Shown here: positions 9,795-58,863 of the stretch, piece after piece
Layout: every line of letters starts with the position of its first letter
How positions within the stretch are numbered: position 1 is the stretch's first letter
Origin: Escherichia coli
GTDB taxonomy: Bacteria; Pseudomonadota; Gammaproteobacteria; Enterobacterales; Enterobacteriaceae
Length of the DNA: 64,000 nt
Assembly: GCF_003991155.1 (NCBI RefSeq)
Contig: NZ_CP031293.1
Reading direction: 5' to 3' (one strand)
Notes under the pieces: generated by a model
What the model was told of the DNA's origin: nothing
The model's input: the letters and a program-made list of their open reading frames with translations, nothing else
Database searches by the model: none
Translations under genes and position numbers: made by a program

Positions 9795-12700
9795 CTATAA
9801 ACGACCAAAAGAGACAATTTCCCCTGTATCTACCGCAACATCAATATATCTTCCGTTCTTTCTATATCTCCACACATTTTCAGTATAACCAGAAACTTTG
9901 GTTGGTTTTATTCTTCTCAAGTTCTCAGAAAAAACCTTAGCTTTATTTAGATATTGCTCTACCGTTTCTGCACCAACTTCACGACCATGTTTTCTGAAGT
10001 GCTCCAGTAATGACTCTGCCGGAGTATCCCAACTTCCTTTACTCCATAGTTTTTTACAATTTACTTCTTGCAGGAATGCAAATAATGCCGATAAACCTAA
10101 AGGGTCAATATAACTAAATGGGTTCTGTACATATGAATATGGATTTAATCCCCCAAGTAACCCAATGGGATCTGCCGAAATATACTGCGCCGTATCAGGA
10201 TCATAGTACCTGAACCGGTTATAGTACAGTCCTGATTCCGTATCTTCGTACTGCCCCGGAAAACGCAGGCGGCAGTCAGGCGCATCATCCTTGTTTCTGC
10301 CTTCTTCCCGGCCCCAAAGTTGCTGTTTTCCCCGCCAGACAATCGTGCCGTCTTCGGTCAGCAACTCCTGGACACGACCGACCGTATCCGTCACCGCGTA
10401 ATGCAGCAAGCCTTTCTCATAACGTGCCAGCGGTGTAAAACTTCCCGGTTCATATATCCAGCGAATGGCATTTTCATATTCTGGTTTGCCATCAGTACCA
10501 ACAGGAATTTCTTCGGTTAACTGATCGCCATTCCAGTGGAAATCCATTCCGGACTTATCACGGTTGGTACACCGTTTGCTGATGCGCCTGCCAAACGGGT
10601 CGTATTTATACTCCCAGCGTTCCCCCTCCGGCGTTTCAAGCCCGGTAAGCTGACTTCTGGCATCCCAGCGATAGCGCCATTCGAGCGGACGATAGCCGCC
10701 TTTATCGACCAGTTTCTCCACCAGGCGACCATTAGCATCGTACGTCCAGGTAATATTGTGCTCATTCACCACCCGGACAAATTTTCCCTCTTCCGGCTTT
10801 CCTGTGTCCGGGTTGATGCGGTGTGTCTGATGCCGCCAGCCTTTGTGCTCTCTGGAAACAACTCTTCCATGCCGCAACTGCTGGTGTGTCTCGCTTTCCA
10901 GCACCTCATTTACCCATGTCTGGCGGCGGGCAATATTCAGGTTTTTGTCATAAGTGAACAGTTCCTCACACAGCGGAAACTCCCGGGAATCGCCCGTCCA
11001 GGTGGCATGGCTTACCTGGTCGTTAACCGTCATATTGTTGAAGGCTGATCCCCGCAGCGAGTCTGATATTACCGTCAGGTTGTACGCCTTGTCATACAGC
11101 CACTGGCGCTCCAGGCTTTTGTTCCGTTCGTACGGCCCGGCCTGGTGGTCCCCGGCATTCTGCTTCGCTGGCATCCCTGTGCGCGTGTATGCCAGCGTCT
11201 GGTAAAACCCGGCCTCGCTCCGCCTGGACGTTTCCAGGCCGCGCAGGTCGTGCTCAAATGTCAGCGGGGCATGGTCCGCTATCTGCCAGGATGCCAGATG
11301 CCCCATCAGGTTTCGGGTAAAGCGTTCTGTGATACCTGCTGTGGTGCGCTGTGTGACCGTATCCAGGTCAGGGTCGTAACGGTATTCTGTGCGCCTGCCG
11401 TTCAGCGTTTCGGCAACAATCTGGTTTGCATCGTTATATTCAAATGTAACGGTGGCATCGTCATTCTTCGCTTCCACCAGACGACGCTGCGTGTCGTAAC
11501 GAAATGTGGTGACACTCAGAGTTCGGTCACTGTTGCCCTGTGTGACTTCCTCGTCCGTCACCTGGTCATTCACGTTGTAGCGGCGGTTAAGGTGAGTGCC
11601 GTCCGGGAAGCTGGTGCGAATACAACGCCCGACGGCATCGTAGGTGTAGTTCAGCGTGCGTCCGGTGAAGTCTGTTTCTGCTACAAGCTGCCCGGCTTTA
11701 TCATATTTAAGACGGTAGCGCTCGCCTTCGGCGTTGGTAATTTCGGTCAGGCGGGTCAGTTTATCGTAGCGACACGCCAGCCGCTCGCCGTCAGGACGCA
11801 CCAGAGCCGTGAGCAGATCGAATGCACCGTATTCGTAACGGGTGGTTTTGCCCTCGCCATCGGTAAAGCTTTCCGGTAGCTTTTCGCTGTTCTGGCGCAT
11901 CAGTTCCCGCACGCCGTCCGGGCGCTGGATTTCTTCCACGCAGCCCTGTGGCCCGGCGTGGATTTTGCTGTGACGAAACTGCGTGGTGAAGCCAAGTGGG
12001 TCTTTCACACTTAACAGTCGGCCCAGCATATCCTGTTCGGTCTGCGTGATGCCGCCGTCTGGCGCAACAGTCTCGCGCACCTGATGCAGGGCGTCATGAC
12101 TCCAGCACCAGGTGGCCCCGCCCGGCAGAATCCGTGCAAGCAAATCACCCTGTTCACTGTAGCTGAACTGCTGTTTCCGGCCCTGAGGGTCGATCAGGCT
12201 GATTATGCTGCCCCGATCATCATAGACCCATTGCCACGCCTGATTATCAGTTGTCGACAGCCGGGTTAACTGACCGGTATCATTATACTCGTAGAACAGG
12301 CCATAGCCGCCCGGCAGGGCAACCTGGATAACCTCACCTTCCCGGTTATAGCGGTACGCCGTGGTACGCCCCAGCGCATCGGTGCGTGACTGAAGCCGGG
12401 CATTATTCCAGACGGTAATTTCTTCCCGCCCCAGCGGATCGATACAGCGGGTGACCAGGCCGTCCTCGTTATACCAGTAACGGGTTTCGCCCCCTTCTGC
12501 ATCCAGGTAGGTGGTGCATTTTTCATCATCGTTATAGATAAAGCGGTCATCGAAGTAGCCTTCCGTTGACAGTGTGCTGACAGCGCGCCCCTGCGGATCA
12601 TAGCGGATATCCACACAGGTTTTGTCCGTATCCCGCCAGCGGGTCATAAAGCCTTCTGATGTGTACTCATGCCATAAATGCGAGAACTGGAAGGTATCGC

Positions 12701-13992: not shown

Positions 13993-15244
<1,252 letters not shown>

Positions 15245-17168: not shown

Positions 17169-25223
<8,055 letters not shown>

Positions 25224-41763: not shown

Positions 41764-43013
<1,250 letters not shown>

Positions 43014-43385: not shown

Positions 43386-43964
43386 AACATAATTCTACAG
43401 ATGGCACAGTATCCCCCTGATACAGGTAAAAACTTATTTCACGGAAACCGGCATAGCAAACTGGATGACACAATACCGGGCAAAACGATAAGTATGGTTA
43501 CTATATGAAACGGAATACTCCCGTTTCGTATTATTTTTTTTGACTGATATCAACGGGACGAATTAACTGACAGGATATTTACTGGAAAGTGTCTGCATAT
43601 TGCTCAATATATTTTTAATGGAAATGTATTCTCCATTAATATTTATGGTGTGATTGTGTTTCCCTGTGTGTCAGCTTCCGCTAAACCCCTTGCTGCAAAT
43701 TACCGATCATTGTATTGTTGCGCCGCGCCTGCAAAATCAGGCGTCGGGATTGGAACCCTGATAAGTGTTACAGGCGACATATAGCGCATTTTGCGTCTTT
43801 TTTATGTCGTGCGTCTGGCTGCATCTCAATGGTGGGCTGGACGGGGGCGTCGCAAGACGCGCCGGTTTCCTGTAACACCGGTAGTTCCAACCCCGTTCAG
43901 TTCACCACCAATGAGATTGGAACCTCTGGTGGTGGAATTACCACCCGTTACAGGAGGCTATCCT

Positions 43965-45099: not shown

Positions 45100-45864
45100 C
45101 TCAGCATTTTACATTCACAAATACACGATAAAATCAGGGGGAAAACCAATATCCAGAAAAATGAGTTTCCCCTTTCTGCGCCAGAAATAACGGTGTAATC
45201 TCCCTCCTGCATTGTCGCCTTCGGGCACCCTTTGGCTTCATGGTCTGCAAGAAGCCCCTGATTTATCAGGATGACCAGCCCTTACTACCGGTACGACCTC
45301 CGCAATACCGGAACGCGAAAGCGTTTGAGGCTAAGAGTACATACACCCGAACGGCTTCATCGTCATTGCTTAACGGCAACAGTCTTCACCGGCTGAACGG
45401 CTTTTCTTTGCCGGAATTTCCCGACTGCCCCATACCCAGCTGAAAACAGCGCCCTTTACATGACGGGCTGCGGCCTGCATTGCCGTCAGGCTTTGCTGCC
45501 GCGTGACCGTCATTCTGCACCAGAAACGCAACGTTTACCCCCTGCACCAGATGAGGCGTCACTTTGGTCGCGCCAGCGAAAAAGCAAAGTGACGCCGTAC
45601 AACATACCGCCGCAAGCCGCGCCAGTTCTGGCCTGCGTCCTGTTTCCGCCGTCTGACATGCCCTTTGGGGCGCTGTCAGTCCAGAGTAAAGGAGAAAAAG
45701 ATCGATACCGAGGGGGGCACGACGCCCCGGAGATACCCCTGCTTCGTCAGGCAGTCTGTACCGCGTACAGCCTGAAACTCCCTAAACCTCAACAATCAGC
45801 CACTCCGGCGTGAAGGTATCGTTCTGGCGCAGCCAAAAAGCACACGCCGGAGACTGTTTGTTTT

Positions 45865-52217: not shown

Positions 52218-53297
52218 TTAACTGTTCAAATCAGAAGTCGTATTCCCCGGTAGAACAATATTACTGGCAGCAAGTTCGCCCATGTTGTTGTATATCGCAC
52301 AAGCAGCTTCGATGATGGGCATCGCCAGAGCTGCGCCACTCCCCTCACCTAAACGCATCTCCATATTGAGATAAGGCTCCAGCCCCAAATGCGACAGCGC
52401 TATACGCGCCCCTTTTTCTGCCGACAGGTGAGAAGGAATGAGATACGGTTTGATTGCAGGAGACATCTGGCAGGCTGCGAGCGCAGCAGCATAAGAAAGA
52501 AATCCATCCAGCAACACGGGTAAACCGCAGGAAGCAGCGCCTAACATCACGCCAGCCATTCCGACCAAATCAAATCCACCCACTTTTGCCAGAACATTAA
52601 CGCCATCCTGCGGATTTGGCTGATTCAACGTAATCGCCCGGCGCACAACATCAATTTTATTAGCCAGTTTATCTGTCGGCAGGTTTGCGCCAATCCCAAC
52701 CACTTCTTCAGGATCCCGGCCAGTGATTGTGCTGACTATTGCTGCTGCCGGTGTCGTGTTTGCCATCCCCAGTTCACCTACACCAAACAGCGTGACACCG
52801 TTTTTTGCCAGCTCCCGCGTATAACATATGACGTCCAAAAGCAACTTTTCAGCCTGACGGCGACTCATTGCCGGAGCTGAAGCAATATTGCCGCTACCTC
52901 GTGCGACACGCATGTTGATAAGCCCGGGGATAGGCTCAGCAGTATCAATACCAACATCAATTACGTGGACGTTAGCGCCCGCTTGTGCTGCCAGCACACA
53001 CACGCCGGTTGTTCCGCGGGTCATATTTTCAGCCTGAATGGCTGTGACTTCTTTTGGGGAAATAGCGACCCCTTCCTCCCAGACGCCGTGATCGGCACAC
53101 ATAACCAGTACCGCTTTTTTGCCCACATGCGGTATGCCATTCAACCCCGGCATTCCCGCCAGTTGTACGCCAAGCGCCTCCAGCCTTCCCAGGCTACCAA
53201 CAGGTTTGAGTAACCCGTCAATATGCCGTTGTGCACGCGACATAGCGGCAGGATCGATGGCAGGGATCGTATTCAGTAAATTGGCAAGTGTTTGCAT
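52218..53297 (-). CDS. cobT: Nicotinate-nucleotide--dimethylbenzimidazole phosphoribosyltransferase
   Basis: 359-aa [43 protein letters not shown]... Confidence 0.85.
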
Positions 53298-53308: not shown

Positions 53309-54052
53309 TTATAGCAGTGCCAGCAGGAAGACCAGTTCACCAAGCTCTATGGCTGCTCCCAGCGTATCGCCGGTTTGCCCGCCCAGCGTACGTTTGAGAA
53401 GCTGACCGAGGATGAAAATCGCCACCATCGTCACCACCATAGCAGCCACACCATGCATACCCGGCAATAATACGGCAGCAAAAATAGCGGCTAAGCCGAG
53501 TGTGACGCAGGTTTGTCGCCCATCAATTTTGCCAATGAACACATTGCCAAGCCCTTCTTCCCGCGCATAACGATGACGATACATCAATAATGCGGCAGTC
53601 CCGCGGCTGACCGCACATGCTGCCGCCAGCGATGCAAGGATCGGTTCGCCACGCAGAGCCAACTCGCTTAACACCAGAATCTTTGCCAGTACCACAAAAA
53701 TCAATGCCAGACCGCCGTGGGTGCCTAAACGGCTATCACGCATGATTTCCAACATGCGATCGCGGCTACGTGCAGAAAATACGCCATCACAGGTATCAGC
53801 GAGGCCGTCCAGGTGGAATCCCCCGGTCATCAGCGCCAGCATAAGTACGCTAAACAGTGCCGCCAGTGGTACGTCACACCATGCCTGCAGCACCATGAAG
53901 ACCAGCCCGCTAATCGCGCCAAGCAATAATCCAATCAAAGGAAAAGTAATAATACCGCGAGAATAATGCTCGAAATCCAGTCCCTGGGACCAGCGACGCG
54001 GTACAGGCAGACGCGTAATAAATGAGAGCATCGCCCAAAATAATTTACTCAT
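53309..54052 (-). CDS. cobS: Adenosylcobinamide-GDP ribazoletransferase (cobalamin synthase)
   Basis: ORF 53309-54088; start likely [18 protein letters not shown] (54052); polytopic membrane protein. Confidence 0.85.
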
Positions 54053-54594
54053 TTGATTTTTACTCCAATACACGAAACCACCAGCCATACTTCATTTGCC
54101 GCAGCGGCCAACTGCTGGTTTACCCGCCCGGCAATATCACGAAAATGTCGTGCCAGACGACTCTCCGGCACAATCCCCATTCCCACTTCGTTAGTCACTA
54201 ATACAACCTTTGCGGGGCAACGTTGGCAGGCAGCAATCAACGACTGAATCTCAGCATTAATCGCCTGTTCCATCGCCTGATAATCCCATTCATCAGGGTC
54301 TTTATCGCCGCCATAATCAAACAACAGATTAGTCACCATTGTGGTAACGCATTCCAGCAACACAGCCTCATTCGGGTTAATGTCTGCATGAATTAATTCA
54401 TCAAGATGTTGCCAGCGCTCCACTGTGCGCCAGTGCGCCGGGCGGCCTTTCCGATGATGTTCTATCCGTGCAGCCATCTCATCATCAAGGATTTGCGAGG
54501 TGGCGATATACAGAACCTGTGAAGAGTCCCCAATAAGCGCTTCTGCGTGGCGACTCTTCCCGCTCCGTGCTCCACCTGTCACCAAAATCATCAT
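54049..54594 (-). CDS. cobU: Adenosylcobinamide kinase / adenosylcobinamide-phosphate guanylyltransferase
   Basis: 181 aa; P-loop [11 protein letters not shown]. Confidence 0.85.
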
Positions 54595-54727
54595 ACCGAC
54601 TCCTGATTCAATTGTATGATGGTATTCATTGAACAGAACAATGGATCCCCCACCGTTGCTGACCGCAAAACATTTACGCGATTAATACTGCGCGTAATAT
54701 AATTAAAAATCCAGCATTCTCAATCCA

Positions 54728-55234
54728 TTACGAAAGAAGATGGCATTGCGGAATAGCCAGACTTCCTCGTGTTAACGTCCGACAAAATGCGTCATTGACA
54801 GCGGTTTCTCTGGCATGACAGATTTCATTCAGATAATGGATTAATGCTACAGCCCCACCAGCCGGACCAGTCAGCAAACGGGCATTGTGTTCTGTAATCA
54901 AAATTACCGTCGTTCCCTCAGAATGAGCGAGCCATTCTGGTACGGATATCTCGCTTTCAGCTGCTATCAATAGCAGCACTGAATAATCGCTATACGCATC
55001 TGATAACGATTGCACAGGCCCACCGTCAAAAGGCTGGAAATCTTGCTGCCAGTCCTCACCAACCAAACAGGTTATTGGCAATATTTCCGCCAGATGTTTC
55101 GCCAGATCCACATCTCCAGATAAGAGGCAAAAAAGAGCTATCGATTCGGGTTTTATCGTTTTCATGCCCCTCGCCCTCCACTTAATTTCCTGTAATGGCG
55201 GTCTGGTTGATAAGCCATGAAACAAGATTGCCAC
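54728..55234 (-). CDS. Hypothetical protein at the position where the cbi operon would begin
   Basis: 168-aa ORF immediately downstream of a cobalamin riboswitch; no P-loop or other CbiA-like motif recognised. Confidence 0.35.
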   Translation of the reverse strand: MAILFHGLSTRPPLQEIKWRARGMKTIKPESIALFCLLSGDVDLAKHLAEILPITCLVGEDWQQDFQPFDGGPVQSLSDAYSDYSVLLLIAAESEISVPEWLAHSEGTTVILITEHNARLLTGPAGGAVALIHYLNEICHARETAVNDAFCRTLTRGSLAIPQCHLLS

Positions 55235-55299
55235 ACCTTAAGTGCAGCCCTGGTGCCTGTCGGCACTGCGATGAAAGAACTAAATGATGCCGCCATACC

Positions 55300-55530
55300 C
55301 TGATCCTTTCAGGGTGGTAGGGGTATAAAGACGCGCCTGTACTCTACCGGACGCTTCCGGGCAACCCACTTCCCACCGAAGTTGTTGGTATTGACTGACT
55401 GGCTGGTCTTCTGGCTTAGCGTCATCCTCTCCCGACCTTCCCAATCTCGCGATCAGTGGCATTTTCGGGTTTGTCAGCATTACAGCAGCGGGGGCTGCGA
55501 GGGATTTTCACCCTCTTCCCAGGCACAAAT
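55300..55530 (-). promoter_or_regulatory. Cobalamin (B12) riboswitch
   Basis: Minus-strand reading contains GGTGAAAATCCC, GCAGCCCCCGCTGCTGTAA and a B12-box-like AAGCCAGAAGACCAGCC (14 of 16 to consensus). Confidence 0.6.
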
Positions 55531-55649
55531 GTGCCACACCTGTCAGCGTATGTTATGAGCTGATTTCACTTTTCCCATAACAGGGAAATAACGTTAATTA
55601 TTCATTCCAGAGTTTATTTAAACCGTCCTCTTTTTTTGGGGCATTTACT

Positions 55650-56564
55650 CTATACCGTTTCCATCGCCGCATTATCACTCACTTGCTGTCGATACACCTG
55701 CGGCGTAACCTGATAAGTCTGACGGAAAACTTTGCAAAAATAACTTGTTTGCGAAAAACCTAAATTACGCGCAATGCTGGCGATGCTCCAGTCACTATGG
55801 CACAGTAACTCACGAGCGCTGGCCATCCGTTGTTGGTTTACCCACGCATTAAACCCGATTCCATGGTATTTCTTAAATAACTTACTGAAATAATAAGGGC
55901 TTAGATAAACGTGCGAGGCGACATCTTCCAGACGCAAATCGTCTGATAAATGCGCATCAATATAACGTAAAGCTTTTTTCATTTTATTGTCGTGGGGACC
56001 AGGCGCACGAGTCTGGCGCAACGAATCTGACTGAGATTTGTTCTCTTTAATAACCACAAAATTGAGTTGTTTTTTTAGGCAATTTTCTACAATCAACTTC
56101 AACAAATCCGCAGAGGCCATAACTCTTGAGTAATCCATCTCAGGGACTTTGCGAAATTCATTAAGTAATTCGGGATCTGCCTGCCAGCAATCATCGACAT
56201 TCAGAATATCGACCAAATCGACATCATCATTACGCAGACGAACTTGCCCGCACAATACAAAACCAACTAAATGTCCGGCGATTACCAGTGGAATAGAGAA
56301 ATCGGTTAATCCGGCATGACAGCGATAAATACAAGGCTGATCGGATTTAGAGGCTTCCAGCCCCCCACAACGATCGCTCATGCGACATCGAGTGCTCATC
56401 TGAGGGTGTTGCCGCATCATCTGACAAAATGGAGTGAAGTTAAACAGCTCGGAAATTTCATCGCCGTGAATATTGACCACGACAACCGCAAGGCTGGTCG
56501 CCTGCGCAAAATCCTGCGCGATTTTATTAATGAGTTCTGAATTAAGTGTCGCCGCAGAAATCAT
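55650..56564 (-). CDS. pocR: AraC-family regulator of the pdu/cob regulon
   Basis: 304-aa ORF with C-terminal AraC HTH (...LRLEDVASHVYLSPYYFSKLFKKYHGIGFNAWVNQQRMASARELL...); divergent from the pdu operon. Confidence 0.8.
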   Translation of the reverse strand: MISAATLNSELINKIAQDFAQATSLAVVVVNIHGDEISELFNFTPFCQMMRQHPQMSTRCRMSDRCGGLEASKSDQPCIYRCHAGLTDFSIPLVIAGHLVGFVLCGQVRLRNDDVDLVDILNVDDCWQADPELLNEFRKVPEMDYSRVMASADLLKLIVENCLKKQLNFVVIKENKSQSDSLRQTRAPGPHDNKMKKALRYIDAHLSDDLRLEDVASHVYLSPYYFSKLFKKYHGIGFNAWVNQQRMASARELLCHSDWSIASIARNLGFSQTSYFCKVFRQTYQVTPQVYRQQVSDNAAMETV

Positions 56565-56766
56565 GATAAAACCTCCCAGTTAATTTATTGTTATAGCAAA
56601 ACAATTGTTTTACATTTAATCTTCACATCATCCTTGATGATTTACTGACGAGAAGCACAAAGGACAATAACAAAAGCCTCCGTGAAGCGGGAGACTTTTT
56701 AATAAGTTCGGAAAGCAGATCACAAACAGTAAAAAAATAAACGTTTATAACTGCCAGATTATTTCA

Positions 56767-57576
56767 TTATTCGCTGATTTCTTTAGGCGTTACACTATTG
56801 ACAGGTAAATTCTTTGCAATGAGATAGCGATAAATCGCCGCACCAACACATGCCCCAATGATCGGTGCAATAATGGGTACAATGAAATAAGGAATATTGC
56901 GTCCACCAGTCATCGCAATTTCCCCCCAACCCGCAAACCAGGTGAAAATTTTAGGTCCAAAATCACGCGCTGGATTCATGGCAAAACCGGTTAATGGTCC
57001 GGTAGAAGCACCAATAACAGCAACCAGAATACCAATAAGTAAAGGCGCAAGCGGTCCTTTGGGTACGCCATTACCGTCATCGGTCAACGCCATAATCAAC
57101 CCCATTAACATGGACGTTATGACCACTTCGACCAACGCAGCTTGCCATACATTAATCGCCGCTGCTGGATAAGTACTGAAGATACTGGCGAGTTGTAAAC
57201 TTTCTGCGCTACCACGCACTATATTGTGAGCAGATTCAAAATCGATAAACAAACTGCTGTAGAGAGAATATGCCAGAACCGCACCACCAAAGGCACCCGC
57301 TAATTGCGCCACACAAAATGGCAGCACTTTACGGGCTGGGAAAGAGGCAAACAGCCACAGAGCAATGGTAACTGCCGGGTTGAGATGAGCGCCGGAAATA
57401 CCTGCCGTAAGGTAAACAGCAAGCGAAATCCCTAACCCCCATATGATACAAATTTCCCACAGTCCCAGACTTGCCCCGGCAACTTTCAGGGCGCACAAAC
57501 AACCAATGCCAAAAAAGAGGAACAGTCCGGTGCCCAAAAACTCGGCAACGCATTGCGCCTTGAGTGAATCATTCAT
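56767..57576 (-). CDS. pduF: Propanediol diffusion facilitator (MIP/aquaglyceroporin family)
   Basis: ORF 56767-57615; start likely MNDSLKAQ (57576); two NPA motifs (HLNPAVT, MNPARD). Confidence 0.8.
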   Translation of the reverse strand: MNDSLKAQCVAEFLGTGLFLFFGIGCLCALKVAGASLGLWEICIIWGLGISLAVYLTAGISGAHLNPAVTIALWLFASFPARKVLPFCVAQLAGAFGGAVLAYSLYSSLFIDFESAHNIVRGSAESLQLASIFSTYPAAAINVWQAALVEVVITSMLMGLIMALTDDGNGVPKGPLAPLLIGILVAVIGASTGPLTGFAMNPARDFGPKIFTWFAGWGEIAMTGGRNIPYFIVPIIAPIIGACVGAAIYRYLIAKNLPVNSVTPKEISE

Positions 57577-58009
57577 AGTGACACCTTCTTTACGGAGTTT
57601 TTCTTTATCAGCCAACTATGCGCTGATTGTTGTGTATACCGAGCGCAACTATAAAAAATTGCTCTGCAGAAAATATTGCCAACATGCATGACAGACTCGT
57701 GTAAAAATCGTGCTAACATAACAAATTATTGTCATTGCCGAATCATGCAACACAGCTTTAATCAGTGTTGAAGTAATAATTTCCACCAAACTTTTACAAT
57801 AAAAAATTGCCATCATGACATAATAAAATTGAAACAAATATCACAGTTCCTTCCTCGAACCAAACTCAACGAAATATTATTCGCGATTAAACTCACTAGC
57901 CAACGCAATTAATTCACATTGAAACATCCACAAAACAACCAATAAATTAACAACATATAGTTCATAAAAGCAATTTTATTATATTTGTTCTCTAGGTAAT
58001 GACTCCAAC

Positions 58010-58513
58010 TTATTGATAGTGTTTTATGTTCAGATAATGCCCGATGACTTTGTCATGCAGCTCCACCGATTTTGAAAACGACAGCGACTTCCGTCCCAGC
58101 CGTGCCAGGTGCTGCCTCAGATTCAGGTTATGCCGCTCAATTCGCTGCGTATATCGCTTGCTGATTACGTGCAGCTTTCCCTTCAGGCGGGATTCATACA
58201 GCGGCCAGCCATCCGTCATCCATATCACCACGTCAAAGGGTGACAGCAGGCTCATAAGACGCCCCAGCGTCGCCATAGTGCGTTCACCGAATACGTGCGC
58301 AACAACCGTCTTCCGGAGCCTGTCATACGCGTAAAACAGCCAGCGCTGGCGCGATTTAGCCCCGACGTATCCCCACTGTTCGTCCATTTCCGCGCAGACG
58401 ATGACGTCACTGCCCGGCTGTATGCGCGAGGTTACCGACTGCGGCCTGAGTTTTTTAAATGGCGGAAAATCGTGTTGAGGCCAACGCCCATAATGCGGGC
58501 GGTTGCCCGGCAT
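58010..58513 (-). CDS. insB: IS1 InsB (transposase catalytic part)
   Basis: 167 aa: [64 protein letters not shown]... Confidence 0.9.
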
Positions 58514-58707
58514 CCAACGCCATTCATGGCCATATCAATGATTTTCTGGTGCGTACCGGGTTGAGAAGCGGTGTAAGTGAACTGCAGTTGCCATGTTTTA
58601 CGGCAATGAGAGCAGAGATAGCGCTGATGTCCGGCGGTGCTTTTGCCGTTACGCACCACTCCGTCAGTAGCTGAACAGGAGGGACAGCTGATAGAAACAG
58701 AAGCCAC
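58432..58707 (-). CDS. insA: IS1 InsA
   Basis: 91 aa: [43 protein letters not shown]... Confidence 0.9.
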
Positions 58708-58863
58708 TGGAGCACCTCAAAAACACCATCATACACTAAATCAGTAAGTTGGCAGCATCACCTGTTCTCTATTAATTTTTCTCATTAGCCGAGTAAGTCA
58801 GCCATTCTTTTTCCTCGCTTTTTTTTATAGTCATATCGTCAAAAAAATCCAGGCGAGGTCTTT

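Follow-up and report, generated by a model that had tools for sequence, protein, structure and literature searches.

Organization of the locus

The window analysed here is a stretch of 64,000 nucleotides from Escherichia coli (contig NZ_CP031293.1), and the locus described lies between the regulator gene pocR and the cobalamin salvage genes cobU, cobS and cobT. On the minus strand, pocR is followed by a cobalamin riboswitch, a mini-ORF, a 145-residue ORF and a spacer (Table 1). The PocR protein shares 88–90% amino-acid identity with the PocR proteins of Citrobacter and Salmonella. A sequence-only reading of this DNA had described a riboswitch-like element after pocR, a 168-residue ORF and, after a gap of 133 nt, cobU–cobS–cobT, and had suggested that the corrin-ring genes were deleted while the salvage and propanediol genes were kept. 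The gap and the gene order beyond it are as it had reported.

Table 1. Positions of the features of the locus in the window and the basis of each assignment.
Feature	Positions	Strand	Basis or description
pocR, AraC-type regulator of pdu/cob	55650–56564	minus	ORF list and PGAP annotation of identical strain; upstream neighbour of the leader
Cobalamin riboswitch aptamer (RF00174)	55384–55558	minus	Rfam covariance model, full-length match (model positions 1–189 of 189)
Expression platform	55297–55383	minus	82–85% nucleotide identity to Salmonella/Citrobacter cob leaders, up to the cbiA ATG
RBS hairpin ACCCUGA-AAGGA-UCAGGGU	55297–55315	minus	Encloses the Shine–Dalgarno sequence of the cbiA start codon
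cbiA' mini-ORF, 44 codons	55162–55296	minus	Opens at the retained cbiA start codon (ATG GCG GCA); TGA overlaps the ATG of the next ORF (ATGA)
cbiG', codons 1–119 of the 145-residue ORF	54809–55165	minus	Homologous to the CbiG N-terminal domain
Tail of the 145-residue ORF, codons 120–145 and stop	54728–54808	minus	cbiP-like matches in the +1 frame
Spacer, decayed cbiP 3' end (codons ~458–506) with stops and frameshifts	54595–54727	minus	blastx and blastn
cobU, first retained salvage gene	54049–54594	minus	ORF list and PGAP annotation
cobS	53309–54052		Follows cobU
cobT	52218–53297		Follows cobS

Riboswitch and leader

The Rfam model RF00174 scores 109.4 bits in the leader (E = 1.7e-26; gathering score 31.5), and the aptamer begins 91 nt past the pocR stop. 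This covariance-model scan, which the sequence-only reading had proposed as its check, bears out the riboswitch, and the three strings quoted for it (GGTGAAAATCCC, GCAGCCCCCGCTGCTGTAA and AAGCCAGAAGACCAGCC) are all found in the sequence; the upper limit of 55530 given there omits the first 28 nt of the aptamer. Among five Escherichia lineages the aptamer has a mean pairwise identity of 94% with no indels. Intact copies also occur in E. fergusonii (113 bits), E. albertii, the Escherichia sp. lineage L008 and Enterobacteriaceae bacterium RIT691, and the orthologous aptamers score 103–113 bits.

The expression platform is as well conserved within Escherichia (94% identity, no indels), and the RBS hairpin is predicted alike by the single-sequence and alignment folds. 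Work by Richter-Dahlfors, Ravnum and Andersson reportedly established that the Salmonella riboswitch acts on the translation of cbiA. By analogy with that system, the hairpin conserved with Salmonella would be the platform that links ligand binding to expression here. The fold energy of the whole leader is like that of shuffled sequences (z = -1.0). A long-range pairing of 55318–55328 with the ORF start region, predicted by alifold, was dropped because covariation was absent, and a terminator-like hairpin inside the mini-ORF (55230–55248) is weak, with a poorly conserved stem.

The 145-residue ORF

The 168-residue ORF does exist as a mechanical reading from GTG 55234 to the stop at 54728, but its probable form is shorter. 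The true start is almost certainly ATG 55165, which is the start used by PGAP and the precise point at which homology to CbiG begins (MKTIKPESIALF versus MNTVKPESIALF); GTG 55234 is not conserved in other Escherichia species. Residues 1–119 of the resulting 145-residue protein match positions 1–126 of the NCBIfam profile NF004463 (cobalt-precorrin-5A hydrolase, CbiG) with E = 1e-19, and align with residues 1–119 of Citrobacter CbiG at 46% identity over 119 residues (blastx, E = 1.5e-24), with hydrophobic core positions conserved. Searches with tblastn and blastx against CbiG from more than 40 Enterobacterales gave E values of 1e-18 to 1e-28, with alignments that always start from residue 1. 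The statement in the sequence-only reading that the ORF has no recognisable Cbi motif was thus mistaken. By the homology of its N-terminal domain the ORF descends from cbiG, and its composition identifies it as a deletion product in which cbiG codons 1–119 are joined to DNA probably derived from cbiP.

The protein does not score as a full-length CbiG: the NF004463 score is 70.9 bits against a cut-off of 546, and only the first 126 of 351 profile positions are matched. A Pfam scan of the ORF gave no match to CbiG_N, CbiG_mid or CbiG_C, and only a meaningless match to Nup96. The CbiG N-domain motifs GATGIAVR and SGHAGGAN, the most conserved of the family, read AAESEISV and TGPAGGAV in E. coli; the corresponding pairs are ANSATAV and SSSGKAT in E. 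fergusonii and GAPSALKA and AEGKQAS in RIT691. Only one of the three CbiG domains is left and both motifs are degraded, so the protein does not function as a cobalt-precorrin-5A hydrolase. It has 145 residues where CbiG has 351, lacks the mid and C-terminal (CobE-like) domains, and is left in a cell with no pathway to supply the substrate.

An AF2 model of cbiG' has an α/β fold with a pLDDT of 77. A Foldseek search of the PDB returned nothing significant; the highest TM-score in the list belongs to a CbiG homolog (PDB entry 3eeq; TMq 0.53, E = 0.49). A PDB sequence search with the family profile gave only chance matches to gp41. A search of representatives of 1.8 billion proteins found only Escherichia-type proteins and broken ordinary CbiG, with no independent stand-alone CbiG_N family, and a full-text literature search turned up no account of the ORF. 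Each of the 30 full-length E. coli matches sampled coincides with an annotated CDS; the PGAP product name is 'hypothetical protein' in many strains and 'cobalamin biosynthesis protein' elsewhere.

The missing cbi operon and its deletion endpoints

That E. coli has lost the cbi genes is textbook knowledge, and their loss is said to have been long known from the work of Lawrence and Roth in 1995/1996. In all other genera fetched, pocR and cobU are separated by a full cbi operon, the arrangement that the sequence-only reading had described for relatives such as Salmonella. In all pocR-bearing Enterobacterales fetched outside Escherichia, cbiG lies 6.6–7.5 kb after pocR, behind cbiA–F, while in Escherichia cbiG' lies about 490 nt after pocR and only some 700 nt separate the riboswitch from cobU. 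Compared with the Salmonella and Citrobacter operons, about 13 kb is absent, comprising cbiA through cbiF and the mid and C-terminal parts of cbiG through cbiP. A search for cbi genes elsewhere in the genome agreed with their loss: a 3.9-kb cbiA–D probe from Citrobacter (C. sedlakii) gave no blastn match in any of 5,426 complete E. coli genomes, a search that a very divergent cluster would escape. Among these genomes is strain 2016C-3878, whose sequence across the locus is 100% identical to that of the window.

Three deletions can be read from the sequence. The first probably fused the opening codons of cbiA to the final ~100 nt ahead of cbiG, the second linked cbiG codon ~119 to a distal 3' portion of cbiP, and the third, a small one, lies within the cbiP remnant. 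On the cbiP side the remnants are collinear and end at the cobU ATG. The tail of the ORF is probably cbiP-derived DNA read out of frame: 'SMTHFVGR' in the +1 frame (54775–54798) resembles CbiP 361–368, and 'GLFHNTAFVR..NGLR' (lineage L014; 'WLFRNAIFFRNGLR' in the window), from ~54759, resembles CbiP 441–457. An in-frame match of the tail to CbiP 445–458 was set aside; the +1-frame match was preferred because it runs directly into the significant remnant of CbiP 458–506. In the spacer, blastx matches VRNGLRTLDFYFHYAQY to CbiP 458–474 (65%) and LLRSVTMEHPLFWSINTIIQLNREPV to CbiP 481–506, ending at the cobU ATG. The junction of the cbiP end with cobU aligns by blastn at 75–79%; in Citrobacter and Salmonella the stop codon of cbiP and the ATG of cobU overlap. 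Judged by its stops, its frameshifts and three indels among lineages (6, 1 and 11 nt), the cbiP remnant is clearly dead. A promoter scan found a promoter-like TTGAGA-16-TATATT in the spacer (54696–54723).

On the cbiA/cbiF side the alignments yielded only non-significant or weak similarity. The body of the mini-ORF compares with the cbiA 5' end at 28–33% (p ≥ 0.09, not significant) and with the cbiF 3' end at 38% (p ~0.015). A blastx hint that this region resembles CbiG residues 298–342 was judged to be chance (E ~0.9). The mini-ORF is open, of equal length and with the identical ATGA overlap in all five Escherichia lineages. Its E. fergusonii equivalent has 49 codons and ends 20 nt within the ORF, an overlap that resembles the canonical cbiF/cbiG overlap, and in RIT691 the mini-ORF and ORF are fused in frame. 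With its conserved stop/start overlap, the layout is that of a translationally coupled pair, and coupling is predicted.

Distribution and linkage

The same layout is found in E. albertii, the Escherichia sp. lineage L008/L009, E. whittamii (L012), the L013 and L014 lineages and E. fergusonii, where we count seven loci in all (L094 and six more). A related stump occurs in Enterobacteriaceae bacterium RIT691, a single genome with no ATG at the cbiG position. The architecture is fixed across the genus, including E. fergusonii, and does not represent a strain-level loss. The core of the sequence-only reading, that corrin-ring genes were deleted while salvage and propanediol genes were kept, is right; what it did not foresee is that the ORF is itself a product of the deletion and that the loss is genus-wide. 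It had also held that a conserved native first gene at this position would speak against deletion. The ORF is indeed conserved and under purifying selection, but the deletion is not thereby refuted.

Within E. coli, pduC is present in 642 and the riboswitch with the ORF in 644 of the 5,426 genomes. The stump is kept in the 12% of genomes that retain pdu, and the other 88% have lost the riboswitch and the ORF's 5' portion by deletion without obvious harm. Both the ORF and the riboswitch remain intact throughout E. fergusonii and in RIT691, neither of which has adjacent cobUST, and in E. albertii despite a cobU pseudogene and a missing cobT. The ORF is thus inherited together with pdu and not with cobUST.

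Selection on the ORF and alternative explanations

Pairwise NG86 estimates of dN/dS are 0.35–0.62 for the whole ORF and about 0.2–0.57 for its CbiG part, compared with 0.04 for pocR and about 0.15 (0.13–0.20) for cobU. Nonsynonymous change in the ORF is about fivefold faster than in pocR, and the constraint is weak. Bootstrap upper limits are below 1 in three of the five pairs tested; in the other two the 95% interval extends to about 1.1 (for the whole ORF in one, for the CbiG part in both). Lineage-private changes number 35 nonsynonymous to 30 synonymous on 270 and 84 sites, respectively. These data, with the indel and stop counts given below, argue that the ORF is not decaying freely and that selection keeps its frame and, weakly, its sequence. 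In our view it is reasonably probable that the locus is the stump of a Salmonella/Citrobacter-type pocR–riboswitch–cbi–cobUST operon, cut in the ancestor of Escherichia, in which the retained chimeric ORF is probably made under riboswitch control and has a pdu-linked role.

An alternative, which we consider unlikely, is that the ORFs serve only as a translated spacer: they would be kept open so that ribosomes follow RNA polymerase to cobU, preventing Rho-dependent termination and passing B12 control to cobUST, with the peptides themselves irrelevant. Codon-position substitutions are even in the mini-ORF (20/18/25) and in the ORF tail (15/19/16), which indicates that neither is under amino-acid constraint, yet both are free of stops and indels. 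The conserved ATGA overlap and the action of the riboswitch on cbiA translation reported for Salmonella would also fit, and because the mini-ORF and tail are so unconstrained, part of the frame conservation may indeed serve translation rather than the protein. A pure spacer would not, however, be expected to show the dN/dS values of the CbiG part, nor the third-position excess that is found in that part only (39/30/64, p = 9e-4). The ORF and riboswitch also persist in genomes where cobUST is absent or broken, and the ORF ends 133 nt short of cobU, with the promoter-like site in the gap.

That the ORF is neutral wreckage, an unexpressed pseudogene fragment left open by chance, seems improbable to us. 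Its degraded signature motifs, the absence of a Pfam match, an amino-acid divergence fivefold above that of its neighbours, its loss from most E. coli genomes and the plainly dead cbiP remnant beside it are what such a fragment would present. Under a neutral simulation that assumes a star tree, however, the probability that five lineages remain free of stops is about 1e-3, even with E. fergusonii (51% amino-acid divergence) left out. Across the 569 nt of mini-ORF and ORF there is one indel, in-frame, compared with seven in 225 nt of equally diverged non-coding flanks, a rate at which about 18 would be expected. dN/dS is below 1, and there is a synonymous excess both on terminal branches, including the E. 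albertii branch where cobU is broken (nine nonsynonymous to 12 synonymous lineage-private changes), and within E. fergusonii (polymorphism of three to six). Unlike the cbiP remnant, which has the features of an unconstrained pseudogene, cbiG' is open in all lineages, with an omega of ~0.2–0.57 and a deficit of indels. Lastly, an unrelated or newly inserted gene in place of the cbi genes, which the missing Pfam match and the 'hypothetical protein' label might have suggested, is so improbable as to need no further discussion, being refuted by the clear CbiG homology from residue 1, the cbiA-derived and cbiP-derived DNA on its two flanks and the absence of mobile-element features.

A possible role for the CbiG fragment

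Returning to the reading of an expressed, pdu-linked fragment, production of the cbiG' protein most likely continues under the control of the riboswitch. RNA polymerase starting at the PocR-controlled cob promoter would traverse the leader; at low adenosylcobalamin, the cbiA RBS would be open and the mini-ORF translated; and the ATGA overlap would hand ribosomes to cbiG', so that a small protein of CbiG_N fold would appear only with low B12 and propanediol. Ongoing translation may also help transcription to reach cobUST. Since the frame is kept, the sequence is weakly kept and the ORF is inherited with pdu and not with cobUST, we think that cbiG' either keeps a residual function or has gained a new one, connected with the B12-dependent use of propanediol. 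More speculatively, and as a possibility that we rate as doubtful, the CbiG N-terminal domain may have been domesticated in Escherichia as a small riboswitch-gated, PocR-induced protein that serves B12-dependent propanediol metabolism, kept with pdu after the loss of cobUST in E. fergusonii, E. albertii and RIT691. One conceivable function of such a protein would be to bind corrinoids, incomplete or complete, or to pass them on at times of adenosylcobalamin shortage.

Comparison with known systems

The locus shares with the Salmonella and Citrobacter cob operons the position after pocR, the aptamer and RBS hairpin at the cbiA start (82–85% nucleotide identity) and the chromosomal site of cobUST, adjoining ldtA. 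It differs in that the riboswitch-controlled start codon opens a 44-codon mini-ORF and not cbiA. In E. coli btuB, B12 control requires both leader and coding sequence. Leaders with a coupled upstream ORF under a riboswitch or attenuator, such as that of btuB, resemble the present one in having a start codon within an RBS hairpin and overlapping stop and start codons; here, however, the upstream ORF is the fossil of a biosynthetic gene and not a dedicated leader peptide, and the coupling is predicted from sequence alone.

The locus is ordinary in kind and modestly interesting in its details. It indicates how the cbi operon was cut, where the breakpoints lie and that the cut goes back as far as the genus itself, and it offers a natural example of a riboswitch that has outlived the genes it regulated and is still under strong constraint. 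In some species only an enzyme fragment remains between the riboswitch and the unrelated ldtA. The pdu genes have been linked to gut colonization and inflammation by pathogenic E. coli; if the fragment is made and used, it would be an instance of a domain from a biosynthetic enzyme reused as an accessory to a pathway that consumes B12. For annotation, neither CDS label fits, and 'cobalamin biosynthesis protein' can mislead predictions of B12-synthesis pathways.

E. coli K-12, whose cobUST locus was reportedly described by Lawrence and Roth (1995/1996), has the same cobUST genes and flank. It retains the last ~170 nt of the ORF and the cbiP-derived spacer, annotated by PGAP as 'cobalamin biosynthesis protein, incomplete'. 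Further deletion has removed pdu, pocR, the riboswitch and the beginning of the ORF from K-12, as from some 88% of genomes of the species; the break in K-12 carries an IS5 element, and in other strains a pduV remnant is fused to the ORF or adjoins cobU.

Layout of the locus

Window 54500–55700 is 100% identical to E. coli strain 2016C-3878, in which PGAP annotates the riboswitch and a 145-aa 'hypothetical protein' whose start ATG corresponds to position 55165. The window sequence, together with this match and its annotation, shows that the motifs, open reading frame, spacer length and gene order described in the sequence-only reading are all real, and a covariance-model scan identified the B12 riboswitch-like element as the Rfam cobalamin aptamer. 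The same reading gave the frame 168 residues. This frame does exist, but its start at GTG 55234 is a mechanical extension, since conservation of that codon does not extend to other species and similarity to known proteins sets in at the ATG. The STnc230 sRNA was noted between pocR and pduF (56625–56708, plus strand); it is kept at the same place in loci from E. fergusonii (L094), E. albertii (L005) and an Escherichia sp. (L008).

Features of the locus in minus-strand order
Feature	Position	Strand	Remarks
pduF	56767–57615	minus	before pocR
pocR	55650–56564	minus	after pduF
Cobalamin riboswitch aptamer (Rfam)	55384–55558	minus	109.4 bits, gathering score 31.5; full model
145-aa ORF	55165 (ATG) to 54728 (stop)	minus	3' of riboswitch
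Spacer	133 nt	minus	between ORF and cobU
cobU	54049–54594	minus	after spacer; then cobS, cobT, ldtA, tRNA-Asn

Origin of the reading frame

NCBIfam profile NF004463 (cobalt-precorrin-5A hydrolase, CbiG) matches ORF residues 1–119 over profile positions 1–126 of 351 (E 1e-19), with a score far below the family cut-off; a Pfam scan of the ORF gave no match. Eighty loci around PocR homologues were compared, taken from a collection that includes a single genome for each species. In Citrobacter, Salmonella, Klebsiella, Yersinia, Phytobacter and others, the ORF invariably matched the beginning of cbiG best, 6.6–7.5 kb downstream of pocR and behind cbiA–F; in the Escherichia loci the distance from pocR to the match is about 490 nt. 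The ORF is 42–49% identical to CbiG 1–119, compared with 88–90% for PocR and 82–83% for CobU against the same genera. Structure prediction gives an α/β domain of moderate confidence (pLDDT 77); the highest TM-score among the PDB matches belongs to the Sulfolobus CbiG homolog 3eeq (TMq 0.53), a match that is not significant (E 0.49). The motifs GATGIAVR and SGHAGGAN, invariant in real CbiG, are gone, and a precorrin hydrolase function is excluded for the product. Among 1.8 billion representative proteins, the search turned up no further stand-alone family like it. In Hafnia paralvei (L058) only ~1 kb separates pocR from the start of cbiG, and the tail of cbiF that precedes cbiG is intact; the cbi gene order or content there therefore differs from the Salmonella type.

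Both flanks of the ORF also descend from the cbi operon. On the upstream side, the sequence is homologous (82–85%) to the cob leader of Salmonella and Citrobacter across the aptamer and RBS hairpin, exactly as far as the cbiA start codon, which is retained (ATG GCG GCA at 55296). From this codon runs a 44-codon frame, the mini-ORF, whose TGA overlaps the ATG of the 145-aa ORF (ATGA); its body has no significant similarity to the cbiA 5' end and only weak similarity to the cbiF 3' end. At the other side, the cobU ATG is overlapped by the cbiP stop in Citrobacter and Salmonella. The Escherichia spacer translates, with stops and frameshifts, to recognisable CbiP 458–506: VRNGLRTLDFYFHYAQY matches CbiP VRKGLAPLDPTFQYAQY, and ...TIIQLNREPV matches ...TIMQQHREPV, finishing at the cobU ATG. 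Weaker hits collinear with these, to CbiP 441–457 and 361–368, extend back into the final 25 codons of the ORF and are in a different reading frame from it. As CbiG homology covers residues 1–119 and cbiP remnants reach into the tail, the alignments indicate a chimera of cbiG codons 1–119 (cbiG') and out-of-frame cbiP DNA. Relative to Salmonella, in which the cbiA start is ~14.1 kb from cobU, roughly 13 kb is missing. An alignment fold pairs UUUAUACCCCU (55318–55328), just 5' of the cbiA RBS hairpin, with GGGGCAUGAAA (55158–55170), which surrounds the ORF start codon, in all five lineages, with no covariation.

The loss of cbi and retention of cobUST in E. coli has reportedly long been known from Lawrence & Roth. 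In keeping with the deletion proposed from sequence, no cbi genes were found elsewhere: sensitive blastn with a 3.9-kb C. sedlakii cbiA–cbiD probe gave no match in any of 5,426 complete E. coli genomes, 2016C-3878 among them. At the DNA level, a cluster of the enterobacterial type is thus excluded from those genomes; a very divergent one would escape such a search. 'Escherichia sp. MOD1-EC7003' (L045) has a full cbi operon after pocR (cbiG 7.5 kb downstream) and a PocR only 84% identical to that of E. coli; this genome either has been placed in the wrong genus or comes from a lineage whose operon is intact. We rate the E. coli locus as operon decay leaving a riboswitch-led remnant, which is a known kind. 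The riboswitch is already annotated by PGAP, which in some cases labels the CDS 'cobalamin biosynthesis protein'; our literature search found no description of the chimeric cbiG'-'cbiP ORF, of the coupled cbiA-derived mini-ORF, or of genus-wide conservation or selection of the two.

Distribution

The distribution shows that the stump is of ancient date and is inherited together with pdu. The order pdu–pduF–pocR–riboswitch–mini-ORF–cbiG' is common to E. albertii, one Escherichia sp. lineage (L008/L009), E. whittamii (L012), two other Escherichia lineages (L013 and L014) and E. fergusonii (seven loci, L094 and six further places). In E. fergusonii the mini-ORF has 49 codons and cbiG' 156 aa (49% identical), followed directly by ldtA without cobUST in between (L094–L100). 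E. albertii (L005–L007, about 10436–11880) has a cobU pseudogene, of which only residues 39–97 align (61%), and lacks cobT; it retains cobS, the riboswitch, cbiG' and the pdu genes seen at the locus in intact form. Enterobacteriaceae bacterium RIT691 carries pdu, pocR and the riboswitch, with the cbiA-position ATG running in frame into a remnant of the cbiG N-domain; nac and cbl come next at the locus, without cobUST. This remnant ends at about the same CbiG residue as that of Escherichia, and the deletion events behind the two may be shared. The riboswitches of all these lineages score 103–113 bits.

Among the 5,426 E. coli genomes, 642 have pduC, 644 the riboswitch and 5' part of the ORF, and 643 the entire pocR-to-cobU segment. 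The rest carry nested deletions: the K-12 type has IS5 at the break and ~170 nt of the ORF left, in 203 genomes a remnant of pduV has been fused into the ORF, and in others pduV adjoins cobU.

E. fergusonii pocR is unusually divergent from that of E. coli (88.7% aa, dS above 1.4), and a glycyl-radical (choline-type) microcompartment cluster lies just past ldtA; E. albertii cobS likewise has an unusually high dS against E. coli (1.2–1.3). An E. coli-identical pocR–cbiG' contig in a 'Citrobacter sp.' MAG (L011) and a 383-nt pocR fragment (98% aa identity) in a Streptomyces assembly (L072) look like contamination.

Selection and decay

The riboswitch and RBS hairpin are conserved, and the two reading frames and their overlap are preserved. 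The cbiP remnant is decaying and the remaining regions are not.

Divergence among five diverged Escherichia lineages (mean pairwise identity; substitutions at codon positions 1/2/3)
Region	Identity	Indels	Substitutions
Aptamer	94%	0	
Expression platform	94%	0	
Mini-ORF	80%	0	20/18/25
ORF, CbiG part	84%	1 (3 nt, in frame)	39/30/64 (p=9e-4)
ORF tail	73%	0	15/19/16
Non-coding flanks (225 nt)	81–84%	7	

The mini-ORF and ORF (569 nt) show one indel, compared with ~18 expected at the flank rate, and a neutral star-tree simulation gave a chance of ~1.3e-3 that all five lineages are stop-free. Pairwise dN/dS is 0.35–0.62 for the whole ORF and 0.20–0.57 for the CbiG part, including E. fergusonii comparisons; the bootstrap upper limit was below 1 in three of five pairs tested. 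Lineage-private changes in the CbiG part number 35 nonsynonymous to 30 synonymous on 270:84 sites (omega ~0.36), with 9 to 12 on the E. albertii branch, and E. fergusonii polymorphism (seven sequences) comprises three nonsynonymous and six synonymous changes. For diverged pairs, dN/dS is 0.03–0.06 for pocR, 0.02–0.08 for cobS and 0.13–0.20 for cobU. Nonsynonymous change in the ORF, ~5-fold faster than in pocR, and the loss of the CbiG motifs count against constraint. Taken together, these pairwise and codon-count comparisons show weak protein-level constraint on the CbiG-derived part.

Proposed mechanism

In Salmonella, adenosylcobalamin binding keeps the cbiA Shine–Dalgarno sequence locked in a hairpin, and by analogy the same would hold here. 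At low B12 the mini-ORF would be translated and the ATGA overlap would hand ribosomes on to cbiG', so that a small CbiG_N-fold protein, and cobUST in species keeping them, may be expressed under joint PocR/propanediol and B12 control. A pure anti-polarity spacer, its frames kept open for translation alone, would account for the unconstrained yet unbroken mini-ORF and tail, but leaves unexplained the codon-level constraint and the persistence of cbiG' without cobUST in E. fergusonii, RIT691 and, effectively, E. albertii; this persistence argues that cbiG' is not merely a translated spacer. The statistics on stops, indels and dN/dS speak against neutral wreckage, and homology excludes a foreign gene.

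In the window strain, IS1 insA/insB (58010–58707, minus strand) lies inside the pduF–pduA spacer (57616–58863), in the divergent pduF/pocR–pduA regulatory region, and could cut the pdu operon off from its PocR-dependent promoter. Strain 2016C-3878, otherwise 100% identical at the locus, has no IS1 there and a spacer of 510 nt.

Other features of the window

Two identical copies of the isrC sRNA (14063–14185 and 41832–41954) lie inside an identical direct repeat of at least 300 nt (13995–14294 and 41764–42063), 27.8 kb apart. This duplication, with C4 antisense RNA (43825–43912), isrK (43725–43803) and EFASI (45697–45825) nearby, suggests two CP4-44/flu-type or P4-like islands. At 20260–21777 a 609-nt unit occurs in three tandem copies (64–79% identical to the reference copy), which probably correspond to domains repeated within the gene of a large surface protein.
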